Below, piece after piece: positions 41,888 to 64,000 of a DNA stretch of 64,000 nt. Each line of letters opens with the position of its first letter. Positions within the stretch are counted from its first letter, which is position 1. Made by a program: the position numbers and the translations under genes. The notes under the pieces were generated by a model. That model ran no database searches, was not told the origin of the DNA, and worked only from the letters and a program-made list of their open reading frames with translations. Origin of the DNA: a virus (lineage: Duplodnaviria; Caudoviricetes); the IMG/VR virus record IMGVR_UViG_3300020195_001430, positions 1,290 through 65,289 of that record. One strand, 5' to 3'.

Positions 41888-44815
41888 ATGGCAAAAGTTT
41901 CTAAAATGATGAGTGGGTCTCCGATCCTTTGTGGCGATAACACAATTCCGGGATTGAAGATTCACAAAGAAGTTCTCGAACAGATTCCCGCTATTGAAGC
42001 GGCCTGTAAAGGTATGGGTCTGGACTACTACCCAATCATCGTGGAATTCGTCAGATATGACGAAATGGCAGAACTCGCCAGTTATGGCGGATTTCCTGTA
42101 AGATACCCACATTGGAAATGGGGAATGGAATATGAAGAACTCTCCAGAGGTTACGAGTACAATCAATACCGTATCTCTGAAATGGTAATTAATTGTTTGC
42201 ATCCAGAAGCTCCAGTCTTAACATCACAAGGCACCATATCGGCTAAAAATGTTAAGACGGGAGATGAAGTTTTGTTAGATGGCAGAACAAGGAATGTAAT
42301 CGCTGTTGTGCGACAACCAAAAGCGAAGACTAAGAAAATTCGTCTTCGTAAAGGGCAAGAAATGATTTGTTCTCCAAATCATAAATGGAAAGTTTTGACA
42401 AAAAACGGACCTGACTGGGTTGAAACAAAAGATCTTAAATCAGGAGATATTTTGTTGGGCAACGATTCATTCAATATGGTTCGTTGGGACACTAAATTGC
42501 AATGGTCCTTGGATGATGTGTGGGACGACACTCGGCCAGCATCCAGACCTTGGCTTAAAAAAATTGTTCCGCCAGCAGAAATGAATTTGGCTTTGGCAGA
42601 ACTTTTGGGCGTGCTAATTGGAGATGGTTCGGTTGGGGTTCAAGGTGCAGAAAATAATTTAGCTGTAGCTGTAGGAAAAGATAATCGCCAATATGCTGAA
42701 CACGTGGCATCGTTATTTTCTGTTGTTTTTGGATTAGAGGCTGTAATCCAAGAGAAAACGGCTGGGTTGGTTGTTCTTTTGCAGTCTAAAGTTGCTGTTG
42801 ATTTTGTTGATTATCTTGGCATAAACAAAGGTTCTACATATGAGAACAAGAGAATCCCACATTCAATTTGGAAATCTCATCCGATTTTCAGAGCAGCGTT
42901 CCTAAAAGGTTTATTTGATACAGACGGATATGCCACTGATCAACTCGGCATGAGTTGTTTTAATATTAATCTTGCTAATGATGTCCAAATTATGTTTTCT
43001 GAGATGGGCATTCAGACTATATTAGAAACATTGACAAATGGCACAGGAAAATACGGCAATGAACTATTCATCAATGTTGTAGAAATTAGAGGACAAGCCG
43101 CTCTTAGAAAATTCCGGGACAGGATTGGATTCACTATTCCTTACAAAACACAGGGCTTGAATAAACTCACATCACGAATTTATTGTCGTGGCGGAGGGAT
43201 TCATTCTGAATATATTCAAAACTCTCTTTTGGAATGGGGAGAAGAGATGGATATTACATCTTATAACTGTCCGTCTCTTGGTCGCTCGCTGAATCAGATG
43301 AAAAAGAAAAGTGTTGGAAACAACTGTTTGCTCAGCTTTATTGAAAGGGCGGCTAATGTTGAGAAATATAATTCACCAGCGGAACTGTTGATGATATTAG
43401 AAAACCCAATGTTTGAGGTTCAAGATGTGCTAGATGGTGAAGAAACAGAAACAATTGACATTGCTTTAGATCATAACGATCATGATTTTATAGCTTATGG
43501 TCTTGTTACTCATAACACCAACCCATGCTACATCTATTGCATGGACTCAAACACACTTGTTGACAACGTGGACGTTATAGCCCACGCTATTGGTCACAAC
43601 GACTTCTTCAAGAACAATATTTTCTTCGAGCCGACCGATGAAAACATGATGAACAAGTTGGCCAACCACGGCACCAGAATCAGGAAATACATGTCCCGTT
43701 GGGGATATGAAGTGGTAACTGAATTCATTGATCATGTTCTGAGGATTGACACTTTGATTGATCCACAACATGCGTGGAGCAAGAAGACGATCAGAAATGC
43801 TGTTGTTAAAGACGAGAGAAGTTATCTGTTTCCAGAGCGTCTCAAGTCACACCACAACTACATGGATGAATGGGTCAACCCAAAGAGCTTCATCGACAAA
43901 CAGCACGAGGACATTGAGAAGCAAGAAGCCGCTCAATTCTTGGACATCTTCGAGAAGCCTGAGAAAGACATTCTGGGATTCATCAAGGACAATGCTCCTT
44001 TGAAACCATGGCAACAAGACATCATCAGTATGCTGTATGAAGAGTCGATGTACTTCCAGCCGCAACGTCAAACGAAGATGCTCAATGAAGGTTGGGCGTC
44101 GTATGTTGACTATCATCTGATGTGCCGAGAAGGTCTCTGTAATCTGGGGCAGAAGAAGGATGGCGACGGTATTTGGCATTACGCCGATCACAAGTGGCGA
44201 GTTCTGGGCGGCAAGTATTCCATGAACCCATACAAGATGGGATTTGAGATCCTGTTGGATATCGAGGATCGTTGGAATAAGGGTCGATTCGGCAGGGACT
44301 ACGAAGAGTGCCGTGACATCAAGAAAAAGGAAGACTGGGATTTGAAGCTTGGTCTTGGCAAAGAGAAAGTCTTTGAGGTTCGCAAGTTCTACAACGACTA
44401 CACAGCAATTCAAGAGTTCTTCACGCCAGAGTTGTGTGAGAAGAAGCAATTCTTTGAATGGCGTCTCTTCCCTAACGGCGAATACAAGATCATCAACCGG
44501 GACTTCAAGACGATCAAGCAGAAACTGTTGAAGAGATACTTGAATGGTGGCTTGCCAGACATCAGACTTACTGATCCAAATCACTTGGGCAAGGGCTGGT
44601 TCTTCATCAAGCACATGTGGGACGGTCGTCCTCTGGAAGAACGATACGCCAGAGAAACAATCATCTCATTGTTCAAGCTGTGGCAGAATACGATTATTCT
44701 GTCTACACAAACGATGGAAGACAAGGAGTTTGTCTACATCTGTGATGGAACTAATCCTGACAAGGATGTTCACCTTCTGACACGTGAAGAATACGAAAAG
44801 GATTTCATGCGATGA
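41888..44815 (+). CDS. spoVR: SpoVR/YcgB family protein containing an intein
   Basis: GFPVRYPHWKWG, EMVIN|TNPC, AHAIGHNDFFKNN, YFQPQRQTKMLNEGWASY and NPYKMG. Confidence 0.93.
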   Translation: MAKVSKMMSGSPILCGDNTIPGLKIHKEVLEQIPAIEAACKGMGLDYYPIIVEFVRYDEMAELASYGGFPVRYPHWKWGMEYEELSRGYEYNQYRISEMVINCLHPEAPVLTSQGTISAKNVKTGDEVLLDGRTRNVIAVVRQPKAKTKKIRLRKGQEMICSPNHKWKVLTKNGPDWVETKDLKSGDILLGNDSFNMVRWDTKLQWSLDDVWDDTRPASRPWLKKIVPPAEMNLALAELLGVLIGDGSVGVQGAENNLAVAVGKDNRQYAEHVASLFSVVFGLEAVIQEKTAGLVVLLQSKVAVDFVDYLGINKGSTYENKRIPHSIWKSHPIFRAAFLKGLFDTDGYATDQLGMSCFNINLANDVQIMFSEMGIQTILETLTNGTGKYGNELFINVVEIRGQAALRKFRDRIGFTIPYKTQGLNKLTSRIYCRGGGIHSEYIQNSLLEWGEEMDITSYNCPSLGRSLNQMKKKSVGNNCLLSFIERAANVEKYNSPAELLMILENPMFEVQDVLDGEETETIDIALDHNDHDFIAYGLVTHNTNPCYIYCMDSNTLVDNVDVIAHAIGHNDFFKNNIFFEPTDENMMNKLANHGTRIRKYMSRWGYEVVTEFIDHVLRIDTLIDPQHAWSKKTIRNAVVKDERSYLFPERLKSHHNYMDEWVNPKSFIDKQHEDIEKQEAAQFLDIFEKPEKDILGFIKDNAPLKPWQQDIISMLYEESMYFQPQRQTKMLNEGWASYVDYHLMCREGLCNLGQKKDGDGIWHYADHKWRVLGGKYSMNPYKMGFEILLDIEDRWNKGRFGRDYEECRDIKKKEDWDLKLGLGKEKVFEVRKFYNDYTAIQEFFTPELCEKKQFFEWRLFPNGEYKIINRDFKTIKQKLLKRYLNGGLPDIRLTDPNHLGKGWFFIKHMWDGRPLEERYARETIISLFKLWQNTIILSTQTMEDKEFVYICDGTNPDKDVHLLTREEYEKDFMR
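42194..43516 (+). mobile_element. intein (441 aa) with LAGLIDADG homing endonuclease, inside SpoVR
   Basis: Cys1 (CLHPEAPV), block B SPNH, LLGVLIGDG and FLKGLFDTDG, terminal THN with Thr+1. Confidence 0.92.
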
Positions 44816-58197: not shown

Positions 58198-59265
58198 ATG
58201 AAACTACAACACAAACACAAAGTTGAGATTCTTCCAGAATCAATAAGAGTCTTAACTAATATTGTGAACAAACTCAGGGAGAAAAAGATGTCTTTGTACA
58301 ACGAAATAGGCGAATGTTCATCCATGGACCCAGTTGATGATTGGGACGATGATGCAGAAGAATTGGATGTTAGCCCAAAGTATTGTCAGTGGGGCACATC
58401 TGATGGCAAAATCTTCATGCCATCCAGCAAAACAGTCAGTAAACTGACTCCGGGTGTCTATGAGATCGACATGAGTCCGCAAGTTGGACTTTACTTCGAG
58501 AAGGTTCCTGTAAAAACAGAGGGACTGCTGCGGTTCCCGGACACCAATTCCGACAAAGTAGTCAGTGAGATTCAGAAGTTCTGGGATCGTGAGAACGTCT
58601 TCAGAGAATATGAAATCTCCTACAAGCGTGGAATCATTCTTTATGGCCCTCCCGGTTCTGGCAAAAGCTGTACAGTGCAATTGATTATGCAGGACGTGGT
58701 GCAGCGACAGGGAGTTGTTCTGGAGTTCGATGAACCAAATCTATTCATCAGTGGCATGAGAGTTCTGCGTCAGATTCAACCAGAAACTCCCGTTGTGGTT
58801 ATCATGGAAGACATCGACTCCATTCTTGAGATGTACAACGAGTCGTTGATCTTAAACATCCTCGACGGCGTGAATCAGATGGACAAGGTTGTCTTCTTGG
58901 CAACCACCAATTACCCAGACAAGCTGGGCCATCGCATCATGAATCGCCCAAGTCGATTCGACAAACGATTCCGCATCGGATTCCCTTCAGATGAATCACG
59001 CCGGATGTACTTTGAACATTTGATTGGGCAGGAGAATATCTCCAAACTCAAGATCGACCTTGATAAGTGGGTTTCTGACACAAACGAATTCAGCATCGCT
59101 CACCTTAAGGAATTGTTCGTTGCTGTAATCATTCTCGGCGATGAATACAAAGACGCCTTGAAGACCTTGAAGAAAATGAAGGAAGACATCAAGGACAAGG
59201 ACTACGAAGCCACGATGGGCTTCGGAACATCTAGTAACAACAAAGCAGAGGATTATTACGACTAG
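58198..59265 (+). CDS. AAA+ ATPase (single domain)
   Basis: RGIILYGPPGSGKS, MEDID, LDG, TTNY and RPSRFD; the start may be 58288. Confidence 0.92.
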   Translation: MKLQHKHKVEILPESIRVLTNIVNKLREKKMSLYNEIGECSSMDPVDDWDDDAEELDVSPKYCQWGTSDGKIFMPSSKTVSKLTPGVYEIDMSPQVGLYFEKVPVKTEGLLRFPDTNSDKVVSEIQKFWDRENVFREYEISYKRGIILYGPPGSGKSCTVQLIMQDVVQRQGVVLEFDEPNLFISGMRVLRQIQPETPVVVIMEDIDSILEMYNESLILNILDGVNQMDKVVFLATTNYPDKLGHRIMNRPSRFDKRFRIGFPSDESRRMYFEHLIGQENISKLKIDLDKWVSDTNEFSIAHLKELFVAVIILGDEYKDALKTLKKMKEDIKDKDYEATMGFGTSSNNKAEDYYD

Positions 59266-59318: not shown

Positions 59319-62300
59319 ATGAAAGAACGGTCCCGGCTTCTCAAGCTCTGTGTGAATGGTTTAGAGTCAAAAGGTCTCACCGGAGATGTTTATAAAGAAC
59401 GTCTCAAGAAAGAGATCAAGGCAATCGACGAGCAGGCAGAACACGAATACCTGCTCAATTTGCACGACAAATTTAAGTCGCAAGGATTGATTTTCCCTAA
59501 AAACGAAAACAATCTCTTTGTGGCCTATCTGCTGGGTCTGACAGATGATTTCGATCTTGCTGCCGAGCCTGTGTTTGTTCAGGGCGAGTTCCCGGACATC
59601 GACATCGACTATCTTAAAGATGTGCGTGATTATCTCAAACGCACATGGGCACCTAAGCAATGGGGCCAAGAGTTTATCTGTGAGATCGGCACATACGGCA
59701 CATCGGGTATCAAGTCGTCCATTCTGGACATGGCTCGTGTTCACAACGTCGAGAAAGACGAAATCCAATCCATCACTGTGAAGATGGAAGACAAGGATGA
59801 TGAAGGCAAGTTGCTGGAGTGGGACAAGGCTTTGGAGATGTATCCAGAGTTTAAGTCTTACTGTGACCGGCACCCACAAGTTTCGGAAGCCGCACATCTT
59901 CTTCTCGACAGAAACCGTACTGGTGGAGTTCACGCCGGGGGTTTGATTATCTCCAGTGTTCCGATTGATGGATTTGTCCCTCTCGAAGTCCGATCAGTCA
60001 ACAAGGCCAATCCCAATGGCGTCATTTGTTCTGCGTGGACAGAAGGTCTAAACGCACAGGATTTGCAGCCAGTTGGATTGATCAAATTCGACTTGCTGGT
60101 CATCAACAACCTGATGCAAATCGCACAGGCTTGTAAGCTCGTCAAAGATCGTCATGGACTCACAAGTATCTGTGCTTTGCCCGGCTTGTGGGACTGGTCC
60201 GACATTTCTTACTTGAATGATCCCAAGGCCCTTGAGATGGCCAACAACGGTGATCTCAAGTGCATCTTCCAGTTTGACGGCGAAGGCATTCGCAAGATGG
60301 TCAAACGTGGCGGCGTCACGGTCTTCGATGACGAAGCGGCCTACTCTGCTCTGTATCGCCCCGGCCCACTGAACATGGGCATGGATGCCAGATACTGTAA
60401 GCGGAAGAGATGGGAGCAAGACAAGAACCATCCAGACGGTGAGCCATACAACATTCATCCGTTGATGAAGCCGATTCTCGGAAAGACCTATGGCGTTCTG
60501 GTTTATCAAGAACAGGTCATGGACATTCTGCGTGTTGTTGGGTTGATTCCCGACATGCACACAGAGAAGGTACGAAAGGCCATCTCCAAGAAGAAGGTCA
60601 AAGACTTCATCAAGTACAAAGAACAGTTCATCGAAAATGGACAGAGAGTTCTGGAAGTCAATCGTGATTTCGTGGAAGACTTGTGGAACCAGATTGAGTC
60701 TTTTGCGGAATACGGTTTTAACAAAAGTGTACTCATGTACACTAAAATTCCATATGTTGGCGGAGTTAAATGTATTAAAGATTTTGTGCCCGGAGATATG
60801 GTTTACTGTGTTGATGAAACCGGAGCAACAGTAGAAACAGAAGTGGTTGCTTTGCATGATCATGGGGAAATAGAAGGATTTGAGGTCACTTTTGATGATG
60901 GATACAAAGTGACGTGTTCAGCCAATCACAAATTTCTTACAGAAAAAGGTCAGGTTTCTTTGAGGAATATTTGCAGAACACGCTCTTATATATTGTCTAC
61001 TCACAATATAAGGAGTTTGTATGCCGACAAAGAAACAGGATGGATGGAAATCTCTTTGCAATCAGGAGTTTCCAAACAGGAAGGAATATCACGATCATCA
61101 GAAGAATTGCATTCAATGCGAAACAGCGAGAGTACAGCAGAAGCTGGAGAAATCGAAGTTTGTTGCTCGATGCGGAGAGAAGATGTTAACCAGAGAAATA
61201 ATGTGGGAACATCACAGGTCTTGCGAAAAATGCCTTCAATTGGCATGGAAGAACGAAGAAACACAACATCTCTCAAGATGCGGGATCGAGTTCCGAACAT
61301 ACAGAGAACGGGAGGAACATCTAAGGACTTGCGATGTTTGCAGTCAATTGAAACAGAAGAATATTCAAGAACGAATGGAGAAACTCAACAAGGACAATTT
61401 GGCTCCAGAAAAGAAGAAAATATTTTCAGACACGGCACGAAAAACATCTGCTCGACCAGAGTTGCTAGCTCAACGAGCGGCAAATCTCAAAAAATGGAGA
61501 GAGGAGAATCCAGAGAAGTTTGCAAAATGCACAGAGGCGGCTTGGAAGAGTCCAAAGAGATCTCGAATGGAAGCATGGTTGAGAAATCAATTAGGATGGA
61601 GCTTCGAAAGGATTCTTTGTGGGGAAATACAAAAACAAGTGGACTTCGTGAAGGACAAGATTTGGATCGAGGTGGACGGTTATTATCATTTCTTCGAGCA
61701 CAAGAGCAATTCGGAGAATCAGTACAGACTCCCGAAGGTTCAGGCACGAGATCAGATGCTCAACGAGGAGTGTGTCAAGAGAATGGATGTGATGCTTCTG
61801 AGGTTGAGCATGGAGTGTTTTCATTCTTCAACGGGTGCGATGAAGATAGAGATTTGGGATTGGGTGCAGGTCATGCTCCGATCACCGATACCGGGAATTT
61901 GGTGCCTCGGAAAATTGTACGAGTCGTGCCCGTGGGCAAATGCCACATGTTCGATCTTGAAGTTGCCAACCCAACACACAACTTCTTGCTCCCAAATGGC
62001 GTTGTGACAAGTAACAGTCACGCTTATGCGTACACATACATTTCCGCACGACTGCTATGGTTGAAAGCACACTATCCGCTGGAGTTCTACACAGCGATCC
62101 TGATGTGTGAAGACGATCACGAGAAGTTCAAGCAAGTGAGAATTGACGCCAAGGCCCATGGAATAGAAATTTGCGGCGTGCAAATCAATCGTTCCAAGGA
62201 GAACTTCAACATCGAAGATGGGAAGATCTACTTTGGCTTCGGAAACATCAAAGGGATTGGTGTTGAGGTCGCCAAACGAATCGTTGAATGTCAGCCCTAC

Positions 62301-63383
62301 AAGAGCTTGGCTGATTTCCTCAATCGTTTTGGGACAGACGCTTCTGTACTCAAGGCATTGGTGGCTCTTGGCGTATTTGAAGAACCATACGACCGTGTTA
62401 CGCTCCGCAGTTTCTCCGAGTTCTACAAGGACAAAGCTGTCAAGCGACGGCAACGGGCACAGCGGTACGAAGCCTCGTTGGACAAGAAGAAGGATGAACT
62501 GGCAAATCACATCTTGACCTATCTGGCCGAGAATGACTCGGACTATCCTGATCCACAGGATCATCTGCAAGATCCGTTGTTCAAACAGATGTGTCAGTTC
62601 ACGCCAGAGGCAGATGCTCTTTGGAAGGAACATTTCGAGAAAAATTTGGTGAGCGTGCCGTTCAAGTATCGTGGGGAAGAACGCACCAAGCAGGTCTCTG
62701 CATACAAGATTCTTAGTGATCTGGCGGCAAAATACCAGACTACAGTGGCTACCTTCCAAGAGAAGGAAACCGACGATGACGACAATCCGACAGCCATCGA
62801 CAAGTTCGACAAAACAAAAGTTGTACTGGACGAAGAGGAAGAGTGCATTCTCAAGAGTGAACGCTGGTTGGGCGAGGAAAGGTCTTTCCCAGAGGCAGAA
62901 AAGCTTTACTACGGGTTCGAGTGGGTTCACCAGCTTGAAACGTGTGAGAAGTATCAAGGCATTACCTTCGACAAGTTTTTGGAAGAGTGCGAAGGTGGCG
63001 AGAACATGTGGGCCGTAGAGGTTCGTGTGGAACAGGTTCGCAAACGAACCAGCAAGAGCAATGTCGAGTTCTACTCCGTTGATATCGAAGATGCCAACGG
63101 CAAGATGATGGTGTGTAACATCTGGAAGGATGACATGACTCGTTGGAAGGACGAGATCAAGAAGGGCAAGTTGTTGAGAATGAGGGTTCGACCGCCGAGC
63201 GGTGGATTCAACACCTTGACTCTGGAATCGGTGCCAAGGCACGAAAAACTCAAGAAGTGGCCAGACAAGGCCAGCGATCCCAGAATCTTTGAACTCACGC
63301 CTCCAGAGCCGAAGAAGCCTGTTGAGCCAATCTTTGATGATTTTGGTTTAACTGATGAACCGGGCTGGGAAGAATTATCATAA
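59319..63383 (+). CDS. dnaE: DNA polymerase III alpha, C-terminal gene (palm, fingers, HhH, OB) with an intein
   Basis: FPDIDIDY, GVHAGG, IKFDLL, IFQF, LYRPGP, VYQEQ, YGFNK|SHAYAY, KAHYP.EF and IKGIG. Confidence 0.93.
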   Translation: MKERSRLLKLCVNGLESKGLTGDVYKERLKKEIKAIDEQAEHEYLLNLHDKFKSQGLIFPKNENNLFVAYLLGLTDDFDLAAEPVFVQGEFPDIDIDYLKDVRDYLKRTWAPKQWGQEFICEIGTYGTSGIKSSILDMARVHNVEKDEIQSITVKMEDKDDEGKLLEWDKALEMYPEFKSYCDRHPQVSEAAHLLLDRNRTGGVHAGGLIISSVPIDGFVPLEVRSVNKANPNGVICSAWTEGLNAQDLQPVGLIKFDLLVINNLMQIAQACKLVKDRHGLTSICALPGLWDWSDISYLNDPKALEMANNGDLKCIFQFDGEGIRKMVKRGGVTVFDDEAAYSALYRPGPLNMGMDARYCKRKRWEQDKNHPDGEPYNIHPLMKPILGKTYGVLVYQEQVMDILRVVGLIPDMHTEKVRKAISKKKVKDFIKYKEQFIENGQRVLEVNRDFVEDLWNQIESFAEYGFNKSVLMYTKIPYVGGVKCIKDFVPGDMVYCVDETGATVETEVVALHDHGEIEGFEVTFDDGYKVTCSANHKFLTEKGQVSLRNICRTRSYILSTHNIRSLYADKETGWMEISLQSGVSKQEGISRSSEELHSMRNSESTAEAGEIEVCCSMRREDVNQRNNVGTSQVLRKMPSIGMEERRNTTSLKMRDRVPNIQRTGGTSKDLRCLQSIETEEYSRTNGETQQGQFGSRKEENIFRHGTKNICSTRVASSTSGKSQKMERGESREVCKMHRGGLEESKEISNGSMVEKSIRMELRKDSLWGNTKTSGLREGQDLDRGGRLLSFLRAQEQFGESVQTPEGSGTRSDAQRGVCQENGCDASEVEHGVFSFFNGCDEDRDLGLGAGHAPITDTGNLVPRKIVRVVPVGKCHMFDLEVANPTHNFLLPNGVVTSNSHAYAYTYISARLLWLKAHYPLEFYTAILMCEDDHEKFKQVRIDAKAHGIEICGVQINRSKENFNIEDGKIYFGFGNIKGIGVEVAKRIVECQPYKSLADFLNRFGTDASVLKALVALGVFEEPYDRVTLRSFSEFYKDKAVKRRQRAQRYEASLDKKKDELANHILTYLAENDSDYPDPQDHLQDPLFKQMCQFTPEADALWKEHFEKNLVSVPFKYRGEERTKQVSAYKILSDLAAKYQTTVATFQEKETDDDDNPTAIDKFDKTKVVLDEEEECILKSERWLGEERSFPEAEKLYYGFEWVHQLETCEKYQGITFDKFLEECEGGENMWAVEVRVEQVRKRTSKSNVEFYSVDIEDANGKMMVCNIWKDDMTRWKDEIKKGKLLRMRVRPPSGGFNTLTLESVPRHEKLKKWPDKASDPRIFELTPPEPKKPVEPIFDDFGLTDEPGWEELS
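60726..62015 (+). mobile_element. intein (430 aa) in dnaE-C, Ser1 to terminal Ser-Asn, Ser+1
   Basis: Interrupts FNK|SH; block A SVLMYTKI...IKDF..GD.V, block B CSANHKFLT, blocks F/G MFDLEV...HNFLLPNGVVTSN. Confidence 0.88.
61021..62007 (+). CDS. Vsr/DUF559-like endonuclease nested in the +1 frame inside the dnaE intein
   Basis: Own RBS (AAGGAG, 5 nt before ATG); Cys/His repeats, a basic helical linker, then VDF....IWIEVDGYYHF...ARD....LLRL. Confidence 0.8.
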   Translation: MPTKKQDGWKSLCNQEFPNRKEYHDHQKNCIQCETARVQQKLEKSKFVARCGEKMLTREIMWEHHRSCEKCLQLAWKNEETQHLSRCGIEFRTYREREEHLRTCDVCSQLKQKNIQERMEKLNKDNLAPEKKKIFSDTARKTSARPELLAQRAANLKKWREENPEKFAKCTEAAWKSPKRSRMEAWLRNQLGWSFERILCGEIQKQVDFVKDKIWIEVDGYYHFFEHKSNSENQYRLPKVQARDQMLNEECVKRMDVMLLRLSMECFHSSTGAMKIEIWDWVQVMLRSPIPGIWCLGKLYESCPWANATCSILKLPTQHTTSCSQMAL

Positions 63384-63421: not shown

Positions 63422-63433
63422 GTGGAGAGACAC

Positions 63434-64000
63434 ATGAAATACAGTACAATTTTTTTCGATTTCGGTGATACGCTGAATCATCCCCATCCAACAGAGCATT
63501 GGGCGATCTATCATTGGGTTCCAGATTTAATCAAGAAGCTTTACTCTTCTTCATACAGATTGGGAATCATTTCAAACACCAGTCGTTATCAGGATGGCTG
63601 GTGGGTCCGCAATAAGCTGGCCGAACATGGACTTCTGCAATATTTTGAGATGGTTATCTCAAGTGCCGCATACGGCGTACACAAACCAGACATGCCGATC
63701 TTTGAGAAAGCATTGAGGTTCATGGAAGTCGATCCATACAAATGTGTCATGGTCGGCGACAACATGAAGTGTGATGGCGGATCTCAGTATTTTGGCATGA
63801 AGTATCTGTACGTCAAACCTCAATCAAATTGGTCTGAATCTTTGTTGACTCTGTTGAATGATGAGTTCCCAAAGACGAGGAAACTAAACAATTTGGCCGA
63901 ATGTAACATTCACGGCAACACTTTAGTTTCAAGGGCACGTCACTTTAGCGAAGTGGTCGAAGCTGGAGATTTGATTGTGGCCAAGGGTTGGGGACGGTAG
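63434..64000 (+). CDS. HAD-superfamily hydrolase
   Basis: FFDFGDTL, IISN, KPD..IF and MVGD...CD. Confidence 0.9.
   Translation: MKYSTIFFDFGDTLNHPHPTEHWAIYHWVPDLIKKLYSSSYRLGIISNTSRYQDGWWVRNKLAEHGLLQYFEMVISSAAYGVHKPDMPIFEKALRFMEVDPYKCVMVGDNMKCDGGSQYFGMKYLYVKPQSNWSESLLTLLNDEFPKTRKLNNLAECNIHGNTLVSRARHFSEVVEAGDLIVAKGWGR

Follow-up and report, generated by a model that had tools for sequence, protein, structure and literature searches.

How can a gene for a homing endonuclease lie inside an intein, in a reading frame other than that of the intein, while the host gene stays open from end to end? This question is raised by a dnaE-like gene in a stretch of 64,000 nucleotides (nt) of viral DNA (Caudoviricetes), hereafter called the window, which covers positions 1,290 to 65,289 of the IMG/VR record IMGVR_UViG_3300020195_001430 (65,289 nt, classed as a provirus, CheckV completeness 13 %; the whole phage genome would be about 500 kb if this estimate holds). 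A first-pass annotation made from the letters alone had proposed that a separate endonuclease gene occupies the +1 frame of a DnaE intein. Our analysis indicates that the locus is very probably a composite mobile element in the dnaE gene of a large environmental phage, made up of a mini-intein that would be spliced out in cis together with a filler peptide and of an endonuclease that would be translated separately from the +1 frame. The data on which this reading rests are the two open frames, the selection on each of them, the folds of both products, the recurrence of the arrangement, and the absence of insertions or deletions (indels). The host gene and the parts of the intein, with frame 0 denoting the dnaE frame, are as follows.

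59319..63383, plus strand: dnaE-like gene for a phage-type DNA polymerase III alpha subunit, 1354 amino acids (aa) including the intein (from the list of open reading frames (ORFs) and Pfam)

60726..62015, plus strand: intein in frame 0, 430 aa, from Ser1 to Ser429-Asn430, followed by Ser+1; the exteins would rejoin as FNK|SH

60726..61010, plus strand: N lobe of the intein with HINT blocks A and B; pLDDT (predicted local distance difference test) 91–95 over residues 1–90; invariant H46, G47, C64, H68, and K69; Foldseek matches to solved inteins

61038..61868, plus strand: frame-0 filler, intein residues 105–381; predicted to be disordered, rich in S/E/G/R, pLDDT <50

61878..62015, plus strand: C lobe of the intein with blocks F and G (DLEV...HNF...NGVVTSN); pLDDT 91–95; invariant D410, E412, V413, H418, N419, S429, and N430

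Frame 0 was free of stop codons from 59319 to 63380, in agreement with the first-pass description of a dnaE frame that remains open through a 430-aa intein. The dnaE product matched Pfam DNA_pol3_alpha, DNA_pol3_finger, and HHH_6, and Pfam did not find a PHP domain in it. It was closest to phage DnaE-like polymerases, the top relative being encoded by an uncultured 595-kb phage (43 % identity). The protein reads ...EYGFNK, then the insert SVLMYTK...NGVVTSN, and then SHAYAYTYIS. The insert splits the host motif FNK|SH, which is whole in empty alleles (AFNQ|SHAVAY in locus L026; FNx|SH in 47 of 60 DnaE relatives). Because insert-free relatives run straight through FNx-SH, the limits of the intein, Ser1, Asn430, and Ser+1 are well defined.

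When the frame-0 product was folded with 13 related inteins, the model contained two confident lobes (residues 1 to ~95 and ~385 to 430, pLDDT >90), and intein residues 105–363 and 366–381 fell below pLDDT 50, with ~277 residues predicted to be disordered. A Foldseek search with this model gave 41 PDB matches at E ≤1e-3, and the 36 that were listed were all inteins or intein-like (BIL) HINT domains. The best match was the Npu DnaE intein (4kl5_A; E 3.9e-7; root-mean-square deviation (rmsd) 2.0 over 102 columns), and the lobes also matched gp41-1, a split intein from fractured genes. These results bear out the splicing blocks that had been read at both ends of the intein. The residues of a class 1 intein were present, namely Ser1, the invariant block-B His68, the invariant Asn430, and Ser+1. 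The penultimate His was absent from block G, as had been noted along with Ser1, and its place was taken by Ser429, which was invariant in 13/13 related inteins. The composition of the filler (S 12.6, E 11.9, G 11.2, R 10.1 %) and its predicted disorder agree with the earlier impression of an off-frame translation. The models therefore support the view that frame 0 encodes a mini-intein, with two HINT lobes joined by a filler that appears to be merely kept open.

Position 1 of the 13 related DnaE inteins was Ser in seven cases and Thr in six (L008, L009, L010, L011, L015, and L019), and the Thr1 inteins showed the junction FNK|T(V/I/L/M)xKDT.... Thr1 is an uncommon N-terminal nucleophile for inteins.

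The same DNA encodes a second protein in the +1 frame, with the parts listed below.

61021..62007, plus strand: gene for a 328-aa homing endonuclease, +1 frame, ATG start (ORF list, relatives, and predicted fold)

61057..61341, plus strand: three zinc-finger-like C..H..C..C repeats, presumably the DNA-binding part, residues 13–33, 51–71, and 87–107 (regular expression and model)

61516..61959, plus strand: predicted Vsr-like (EDxHD-type) nuclease domain, residues ~166–313 (VIA-align and invariant columns)

The stop codon of this gene lies 8 nt ahead of the last base of the intein. The Cys/His repeats seen at first reading were recovered by a regular expression as three copies of C-x(n)-H-x3-C-x2-C, and each was modelled as a beta-hairpin plus helix (pLDDT >90). 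A collection of 5.8 billion proteins contained 38 relatives of the ORF, for three of which the JGI name was very-short-patch-repair endonuclease, and the number of cluster representatives found in an exhaustive search for the family was 158 at E 1e-3, 67 at 1e-10, and 29 at 1e-30. D208, E217, D219, H223, and D244 were invariant in 28/28 members and are candidates for the composite catalytic motif of acidic residues and a general-base His, to which H213 and D222 belong in I-Bth0305I. AlphaFold2 run on the 28-member alignment gave a model with pLDDT 88.6, comprising three hairpin-helix units, a helical stretch, and an alpha/beta domain. With VIA-align, the nuclease domain matched Escherichia coli Vsr (1cw0_A, Z 10.3, 130 residues aligned, rmsd 4.0; 1vsr, Z 9.6, 117 aligned, rmsd 3.6) and the catalytic domain of I-Bth0305I (3r3p_A, Z 8.5, rmsd 2.7, 89 of 97 residues aligned), and the next unrelated entries scored Z ≤7.3. 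Foldseek with the whole nuclease model found nothing at E ≤1e-3 (Vsr, E 1.6e-2; 3r3p, E 0.31), and its weak matches included C2H2 finger arrays (best E 1e-2).

In searches by sequence, Pfam gave no match for the +1 ORF of the window, PHROGs gave a single weak row (phrog_6323, E 0.037), and PDB sequences searched with the family profile or with the isolated nuclease domain yielded rows no better than chance (zinc fingers, E 0.25–0.68; MecA, E 0.79). DUF559 was matched weakly by 4 of the 28 nuclease relatives (best E 7.8e-4). Of the first-pass description as a Vsr/DUF559-type nuclease, the Vsr fold stood on structural grounds, and the window ORF itself did not match DUF559 in Pfam. A tblastn search of GenBank phage records with the nuclease found none at E 1e-3, and this nuclease subfamily was seen only in metagenomic contigs and in two contigs of metagenome-assembled genomes (MAGs). 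Structure prediction for each frame, which had been suggested as a check, thus gave a HINT domain in frame 0 and a Vsr-like nuclease in the +1 frame, the latter fold being visible in the model and not by sequence methods alone.

The overlap of 987 nt was stop-free in both the dnaE frame and the +1 frame, as first reported. Over 60726..62015, the third plus-strand frame contained 24 stops, and the three minus-strand frames contained 19, 11, and 15. When the codons of the +1 ORF were shuffled synonymously 20,000 times, with protein and codon usage kept, the dnaE frame acquired at least 7 stops and, averaged over all shuffles, 17.7, against 0 observed. The open dnaE frame is beyond chance and has been selected. 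A stop in the dnaE frame requires a +1-ORF codon that ends in T ahead of AA, AG, or GA, and in the window the third base before these dinucleotides was T in 0 and C in 27 cases, whereas before other dinucleotides it was T in 64 and C in 26. The same signature was found in the window and in all 19 dual-open rows of a 25-locus survey (NNT before AA/AG/GA, 0; NNC, 14–31), with T 24–71 and C 16–38 elsewhere in the same genes; of the 2000 shuffles made for each of these loci, not one gave 0 stops. In contrast, the six broken rows had 23–63 NNT codons before AA/AG/GA and many stops. NNT and NNC are synonymous in every codon family of the standard code, and stop avoidance by C therefore costs the +1 protein nothing.

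Selection on the two frames also differed. Among six close loci, substitution rates at codon positions 1/2/3 of the +1 ORF were 0.373/0.289/0.566, and amino acid identity was 0.549 in the +1 frame versus 0.309 in frame 0. This codon-position pattern and the contrast in identity indicate that the nuclease is under purifying selection and that the middle of frame 0 is just kept open, as the first-pass annotation had predicted. A short stretch near the 3′ end departs from this division of labor.

61888..61959, plus strand: true double coding, nuclease residues 290–313 (last strands and helix) and intein C-lobe residues 388–412 (first strands), both models being confident

In this stretch, substitutions by +1 codon position were 0.195/0.299/0.346, and identity was about equal in the two frames (0.565 and 0.584). 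The Vsr alignments reach model residue 312–313, that is, into the shared stretch, so that here ~70 nt would encode folded parts of two proteins at once.

The two frames were also intact in contigs assembled from metagenome runs; the sequence occurs in mat and freshwater habitats. Logan contigs from four metagenome runs, one of which may be the source of the IMG/VR record, showed no inserted or missing letters over 60600..62200. A contig of 1225 nt from another sample covers 60751..61975, including both frame junctions, and differs by 12 substitutions without any gap. In its nuclease-only part, 4/5 substitutions left the nuclease protein unchanged and altered the frame-0 residue, and in its intein N lobe, 5/7 were synonymous in frame 0.

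The arrangement recurs well beyond the window. A survey based on the nuclease gave 25 loci, in which near-duplicate rows were kept (L001=L018, L004~L005, L009=L022, L016=L017, L012=L013, and L014=L025). In 19 of them, the frame lying one base upstream of that of the nuclease was open over the whole gene, in ORFs of 305–1932 aa, and the six broken rows were L003, L012, L013, L014, L024, and L025. The host was DnaE in 13 loci; in 13/13 of these the nuclease was +1 to the intein, and its stop lay 8–56 nt before the intein end. A second survey, based on the intein N lobe, gave 80 loci, of which 26 had a nuclease-family match; in 23/26 the host frame was open and the nuclease +1, and in the other three (L046, L047, and L051) the host frame was broken and the nuclease +2. 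Two MAG contigs carry the same dual-coded layout. By a tally of rows with different values, ~26 distinct dual-coded sequences exist besides the window. The first-pass proposal of a separate endonuclease gene inside a contiguous mini-intein, with filler in frame 0, is thus upheld by the folds, the selection, and this recurrence.

Seven of the 23 open rows (L030, L034/L035, L037/L038, L041, and L042) hold just 89–145 aa nuclease remnants with internal deletions, and L015 holds a 143-aa remnant. These shortened inteins keep the first 20–75 and the last ~50 nuclease residues; the +1 relation is retained, and the host frame has not closed. They resemble deletion derivatives on a path to mini-inteins, which is the picture expected from decay of a homing endonuclease.

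Fractured forms of the element were found as well. In L003, a textbook example, dnaE is fractured around the same intein at the identical site: the stop that closes the N part overlaps the ATG of the nuclease, and the C part has a separate ATG 150 nt ahead of the nuclease stop codon. The intein of the fractured L012 begins with Cys1. A tree built from 18 nuclease sequences placed L003 inside a well-supported clade (96/96) with 11 dual-coded rows, and the broken state required at least two changes; the tree was midpoint-rooted and shows no direction of change. At 857..860 of L003, the N part of DnaE ends and the nuclease begins within a shared ATGA, an arrangement typical of translational coupling.

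The dnaE site is occupied sporadically. Of 60 DnaE relatives retrieved with the C-extein, this element is present in 8, a different intein-like sequence lies upstream in 5, and the site is empty in 47, the counts of 5 and 47 coming from a reading of the printed rows by eye. One relative with an empty site (L111) shares 72 % identity with the window over the C-extein. With the C-extein as a single query, no relatives were found in viral contigs, whereas an alignment query did find relatives. Outside dnaE, the same intein with a +1 nuclease occurred in 757–1447 aa host gene(s) with no other Pfam domain (L004/L005, L006, L021, and L033; junctions of non-DnaE hosts, ...SN|SETVLH, ...SN|SHLVDS, and ...SN|SNNQTM), indicating that the composite element has moved to at least one other gene. 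Related dnaE genes in L007, L015, L023, and L010 have a further intein upstream (an in-frame LAGLIDADG or a second HINT match), so that two inteins of different architecture stand in one dnaE gene.

The region in which translation of the nuclease would start has two features.

61010..61015, plus strand: Shine-Dalgarno-like AAGGAG, 5 nt upstream of the ATG at 61021

60982..61016, plus strand: predicted RNA hairpin whose 3′ arm contains the AAGGAG; an outer stem, 60973..61024, extends into the ATG

A TAA of the +1 frame lies at 61009..61011, 12 nt ahead of the ATG, so that stop, AAGGAG, and ATG follow in a row; the ORF and its ribosome-binding site were thus as first described, and GGAG-type sites precede the ATG in most related loci. 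The hairpin, folded from 60 nt before the ATG, had an energy of −17.6 kcal/mol (z −3.66; 1/200 shuffles as good), and similar hairpins with GGAG inside were found in 5/5 close relatives (z −2.19 to −4.10; 6/6 with the window). Rfam on 60400..62400 gave just one sub-threshold row, for a long noncoding RNA, and no intron model was matched. By hiding the ribosome-binding site, the hairpin probably limits or times translation of the nuclease. As this part of dnaE is itself translated, the hairpin would be opened by ribosomes moving through. The first-pass annotation had suggested that nuclease expression is uncoupled from polymerase expression; this may be so, but the hairpin could equally couple the two.

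We infer how the locus would work, from splicing and separate translation to cleavage, homing, and the part played by the hairpin, as follows. Translation of frame 0 would give one polypeptide of N-extein, mini-intein with a disordered filler of ~277 residues, and C-extein. The intein would excise itself and the filler in cis, by an acyl shift at Ser1, transfer to Ser+1, and cyclization of Asn430, and splicing would restore the polymerase motif FNK|SH. The filler would be nothing but the −1 reading of a free-standing endonuclease gene, which would be translated on its own from AAGGAG and the ATG at 61021 into a protein of three finger-like repeats, a helical linker, and a Vsr-like nuclease. 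The nuclease presumably cuts element-free dnaE alleles, and repair would copy intein and nuclease together; the homing target could be empty dnaE alleles or inteins without a nuclease. Frame 0 would be kept open by C instead of T at nuclease third positions before AA, AG, and GA, and the hairpin over the ribosome-binding site probably restrains or times nuclease synthesis.

Several results weigh against this interpretation. The window intein scored 24 bits against Pfam Intein_splicing, below the 35.8-bit gathering cut-off, which was passed by the relatives L004 (40.4), L006 (36.9), L007 (59.5), and L019 (39.4). Splicing is assumed despite a 277-residue disordered insert, Ser1, and the missing penultimate His. 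The nuclease showed no sequence-level match to Vsr or I-Bth0305I in Pfam or the PDB. The hairpin was not significant in seven more distant loci, and RNAalifold on six sequences, in which the range of L108 was misplaced and the arms shift register between loci, found no consensus pairs; the hairpin claim therefore draws on per-sequence energies, and no covariation is claimed. A sigma-70 scan of 60500..62300 gave 0 sites, and the ACTCACAATATA stretch that had first been taken for a promoter-like motif proved to be the loop and 3′ arm of the hairpin holding the ribosome-binding site. None of the listed sequencing runs containing the stretch is recorded as RNA. Finally, an 859-aa ENA protein (P0039), which comprises the DnaE N part, the intein N lobe, a single frame switch, and the whole nuclease to its stop, reads the intein N lobe directly into the nuclease frame; this protein may reflect an error in sequencing, a frameshift that occurs naturally, or yet another, third form of the element.

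One alternative is that two compensating indels from assembly or sequencing mask an ordinary in-frame endonuclease domain. Nothing was found in its favor, although P0039 shows that one or more database records contain one switch of frame at the 5′ junction. This explanation deserves almost no credence, since the contigs of four runs, including the 1225-nt contig from another sample, have no indels, the +1 relation is kept in 13/13 and 23/26 loci across 31–76 % nuclease identity, and an artifact would not strip ~18 expected stops from frame 0. The refuting observation named by the first-pass annotation, reads with compensating indels, was therefore not encountered, and the +1 layout was seen in many divergent loci. 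P0039 has also the fused reading expected if programmed +1 ribosomal frameshifting joined the nuclease to the DnaE N part and intein N lobe, but we regard such a fusion as very improbable because in the window a +1-frame stop stands 12 nt before the ATG, the ribosome-binding site and ATG come directly after that stop, and several relatives have a stop 1–3 codons before the first ATG.

It is somewhat less improbable, although the chance is still small, that the nuclease ORF is a decaying, unexpressed relic and that only the intein matters. The internally deleted remnants among the relatives (89–145 aa; 143 aa in L015) and the sequestration of the ribosome-binding site in a hairpin fit this idea, whereas the window ORF is of full length with all five invariant acidic/His residues, its product folds confidently (pLDDT 88.6), and purifying selection acts in the +1 frame even among near-identical strains. 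We give a similarly low weight to the idea that the polymerase is formed by trans-splicing of separately made halves, or that the filler has a function of its own such as conditional control of splicing. A close relative with the same intein at the same site is truly fractured (L003), L012 is also fractured, and the fold resembles the natural split inteins Npu DnaE and gp41-1; however, the N part in the window ends in no stop, strong selection against stops would be pointless if the halves were made separately, and the filler is poorly conserved (0.309 identity) and predicted to be disordered. The composite element with a cis-spliced intein and a separately translated nuclease thus remains the interpretation that we favor.

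The closest known systems are the fractured DnaE loci of Dassa et al. (2009; PMC2677866), where, according to the accessible text, a Vsr-like endonuclease family accompanies split inteins at three such loci with stops and spacers. That text also reports hairpins before 15/16 endonuclease genes of fractured loci and cites work on phage Aeh1 in which a hairpin sequesters the ribosome-binding site. As there described, the fractured genes resemble the window in having a DnaE host and the same kind of endonuclease on the same strand between intein blocks B and F, with a hairpin upstream of the start and the 3′ end of the nuclease overlapping the C part of the intein, and they are mainly phage-borne. 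In contrast to the window, their host frame ends in a stop, followed by a 27–51 nt spacer and a C part with its own start, with an overlap of 6–69 bp, whereas the host frame of the window is stop-free through the whole nuclease gene (987 nt), and splicing can therefore be in cis. The broken host frame of that type is absent in the window and present in L003 and L012. Some of the nucleases in the same text carry NUMOD motifs, whereas the nuclease of the window carries zinc-finger-like repeats. The window element is the unbroken counterpart of these “fractured genes.”

Endonucleases outside the intein frame have also been described in contiguous inteins. The main text of Gosselin, Arsenault, and Gogarten (bioRxiv 10.1101/2025.01.02.630785) describes actinophage inteins with antisense LAGLIDADG, antisense VSR-like, and frame-3 endonuclease VII-like genes, hosted by DNA polymerase, minor capsid, terminase, and thymidylate synthase genes, and states that VSR-like endonucleases are otherwise known just with split inteins. 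The window shares with these inteins the contiguous intein, the endonuclease in another frame, and an in-frame middle without recognizable structure, and that text proposes the same origin, a free-standing endonuclease invading an intein. The four architectures of its main text do not include a Vsr-like gene in the +1 frame of the sense strand, although its supplementary tables may list more. As given in the accessible text of Phillips, DeSimone, and Gogarten (bioRxiv 10.64898/2026.09.14.751524), a cyanobacterial dnaX intein contains a +2-frame LAGLIDADG gene, examined by frame-specific ratios of nonsynonymous to synonymous substitution rates (dN/dS). Here too an endonuclease ORF overlaps a contiguous intein on the same strand, a secondary invasion of a mini-intein is proposed, and dN/dS is low in the endonuclease frame and relaxed in the intein frame, as in our locus. 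It differs from the window in the LAGLIDADG family, the +2 frame, and the cellular host, and neither a codon analysis of stop avoidance nor a link to fractured forms was found in that text.

The features given for non-canonical inteins in the 2025–2026 preprints, namely a contiguous intein, an endonuclease ORF in another frame at the usual insertion region, and purifying selection, were found in the window. The novelty claimed by the first-pass annotation was accordingly overstated: on the accessible text, the general idea of an out-of-frame intein endonuclease is already in these two preprints, for other nuclease families or the opposite strand, and the same family stands beside split DnaE inteins in PMC2677866. 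Two further systems share single features with the window. I-Bth0305I, characterized by Taylor et al. (2011; PMC3239194), where the EDxHD family is named, resembles the window nuclease in its Vsr-like catalytic fold, its two-part build with a separate DNA-binding part, and its phage origin, but on the accessible text it lies in a group I intron of recA and has NUMOD-type DNA-binding motifs. In ShiLan, where an HNH gene is inserted out of frame into methylase genes of phages (Arsenault et al. 2025; PMC11855218), the insertion likewise contains an endonuclease ORF in another frame and introduces no stop into that of the host; as described in the part of that paper available, it differs in having no intein, a filler that stays in the host protein, and an HNH gene in the third frame. 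In this literature, covered in part and without supplements, we met no description of an unbroken intein with a Vsr-like gene in the +1 frame of the sense strand, of an NNT/NNC signature, or of coexisting unbroken and fractured forms of one element.

The coexistence of the same intein-endonuclease pair at the same dnaE site in both unbroken and fractured form is a state that we did not find in the accessible accounts of how split inteins arise by gene breaking. A C-to-T change in the third position of just one nuclease codon that precedes AA, AG, or GA would put a stop into the host frame and hence give a fractured gene. We therefore propose, tentatively and with the balance of probability somewhat against it, that the unbroken dual-coded form is the main maintained state of inteins with Vsr-like endonucleases in phage dnaE, that fractured split-intein genes arise from it by such a stop, and that melting of the hairpin by polymerase-making ribosomes ties nuclease synthesis to polymerase synthesis. 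If this doubtful proposal were true, an intein could pass from splicing in cis to splicing in trans by a short route open to it in nature. At the level of the code, the locus gives an account of how an essential gene tolerates a 1-kb selfish gene across it, through NNT-to-NNC choices. Because gene callers retain one frame, such nucleases are overlooked, or their inteins filed as decaying. The element may also be of interest for tools, the intein because it is cysteine-free at both splice junctions (Ser1 and Ser+1) and related to split forms, with a view to protein ligation, and the nuclease because of its modular finger-like repeats, with a view to DNA-cutting tools.

In the surroundings of dnaE, a 355-aa ORF with a Walker-A-like GPPGSGKS lies upstream (58198..59265, plus strand), and the start of the ORF downstream (63422..64000, plus strand) resembles a HAD-type hydrolase, both as read from the translation alone. 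The window contains a second intein, in a SpoVR-like protein of 975 aa (41888..44815, plus strand), which has an ordinary in-frame LAGLIDADG domain (Pfam SpoVR, 3.4e-98; LAGLIDADG_3, 2.1e-12; Intein_splicing, 4.3e-7). A canonical and a dual-coded intein thus stand 16 kb apart in one fragment.

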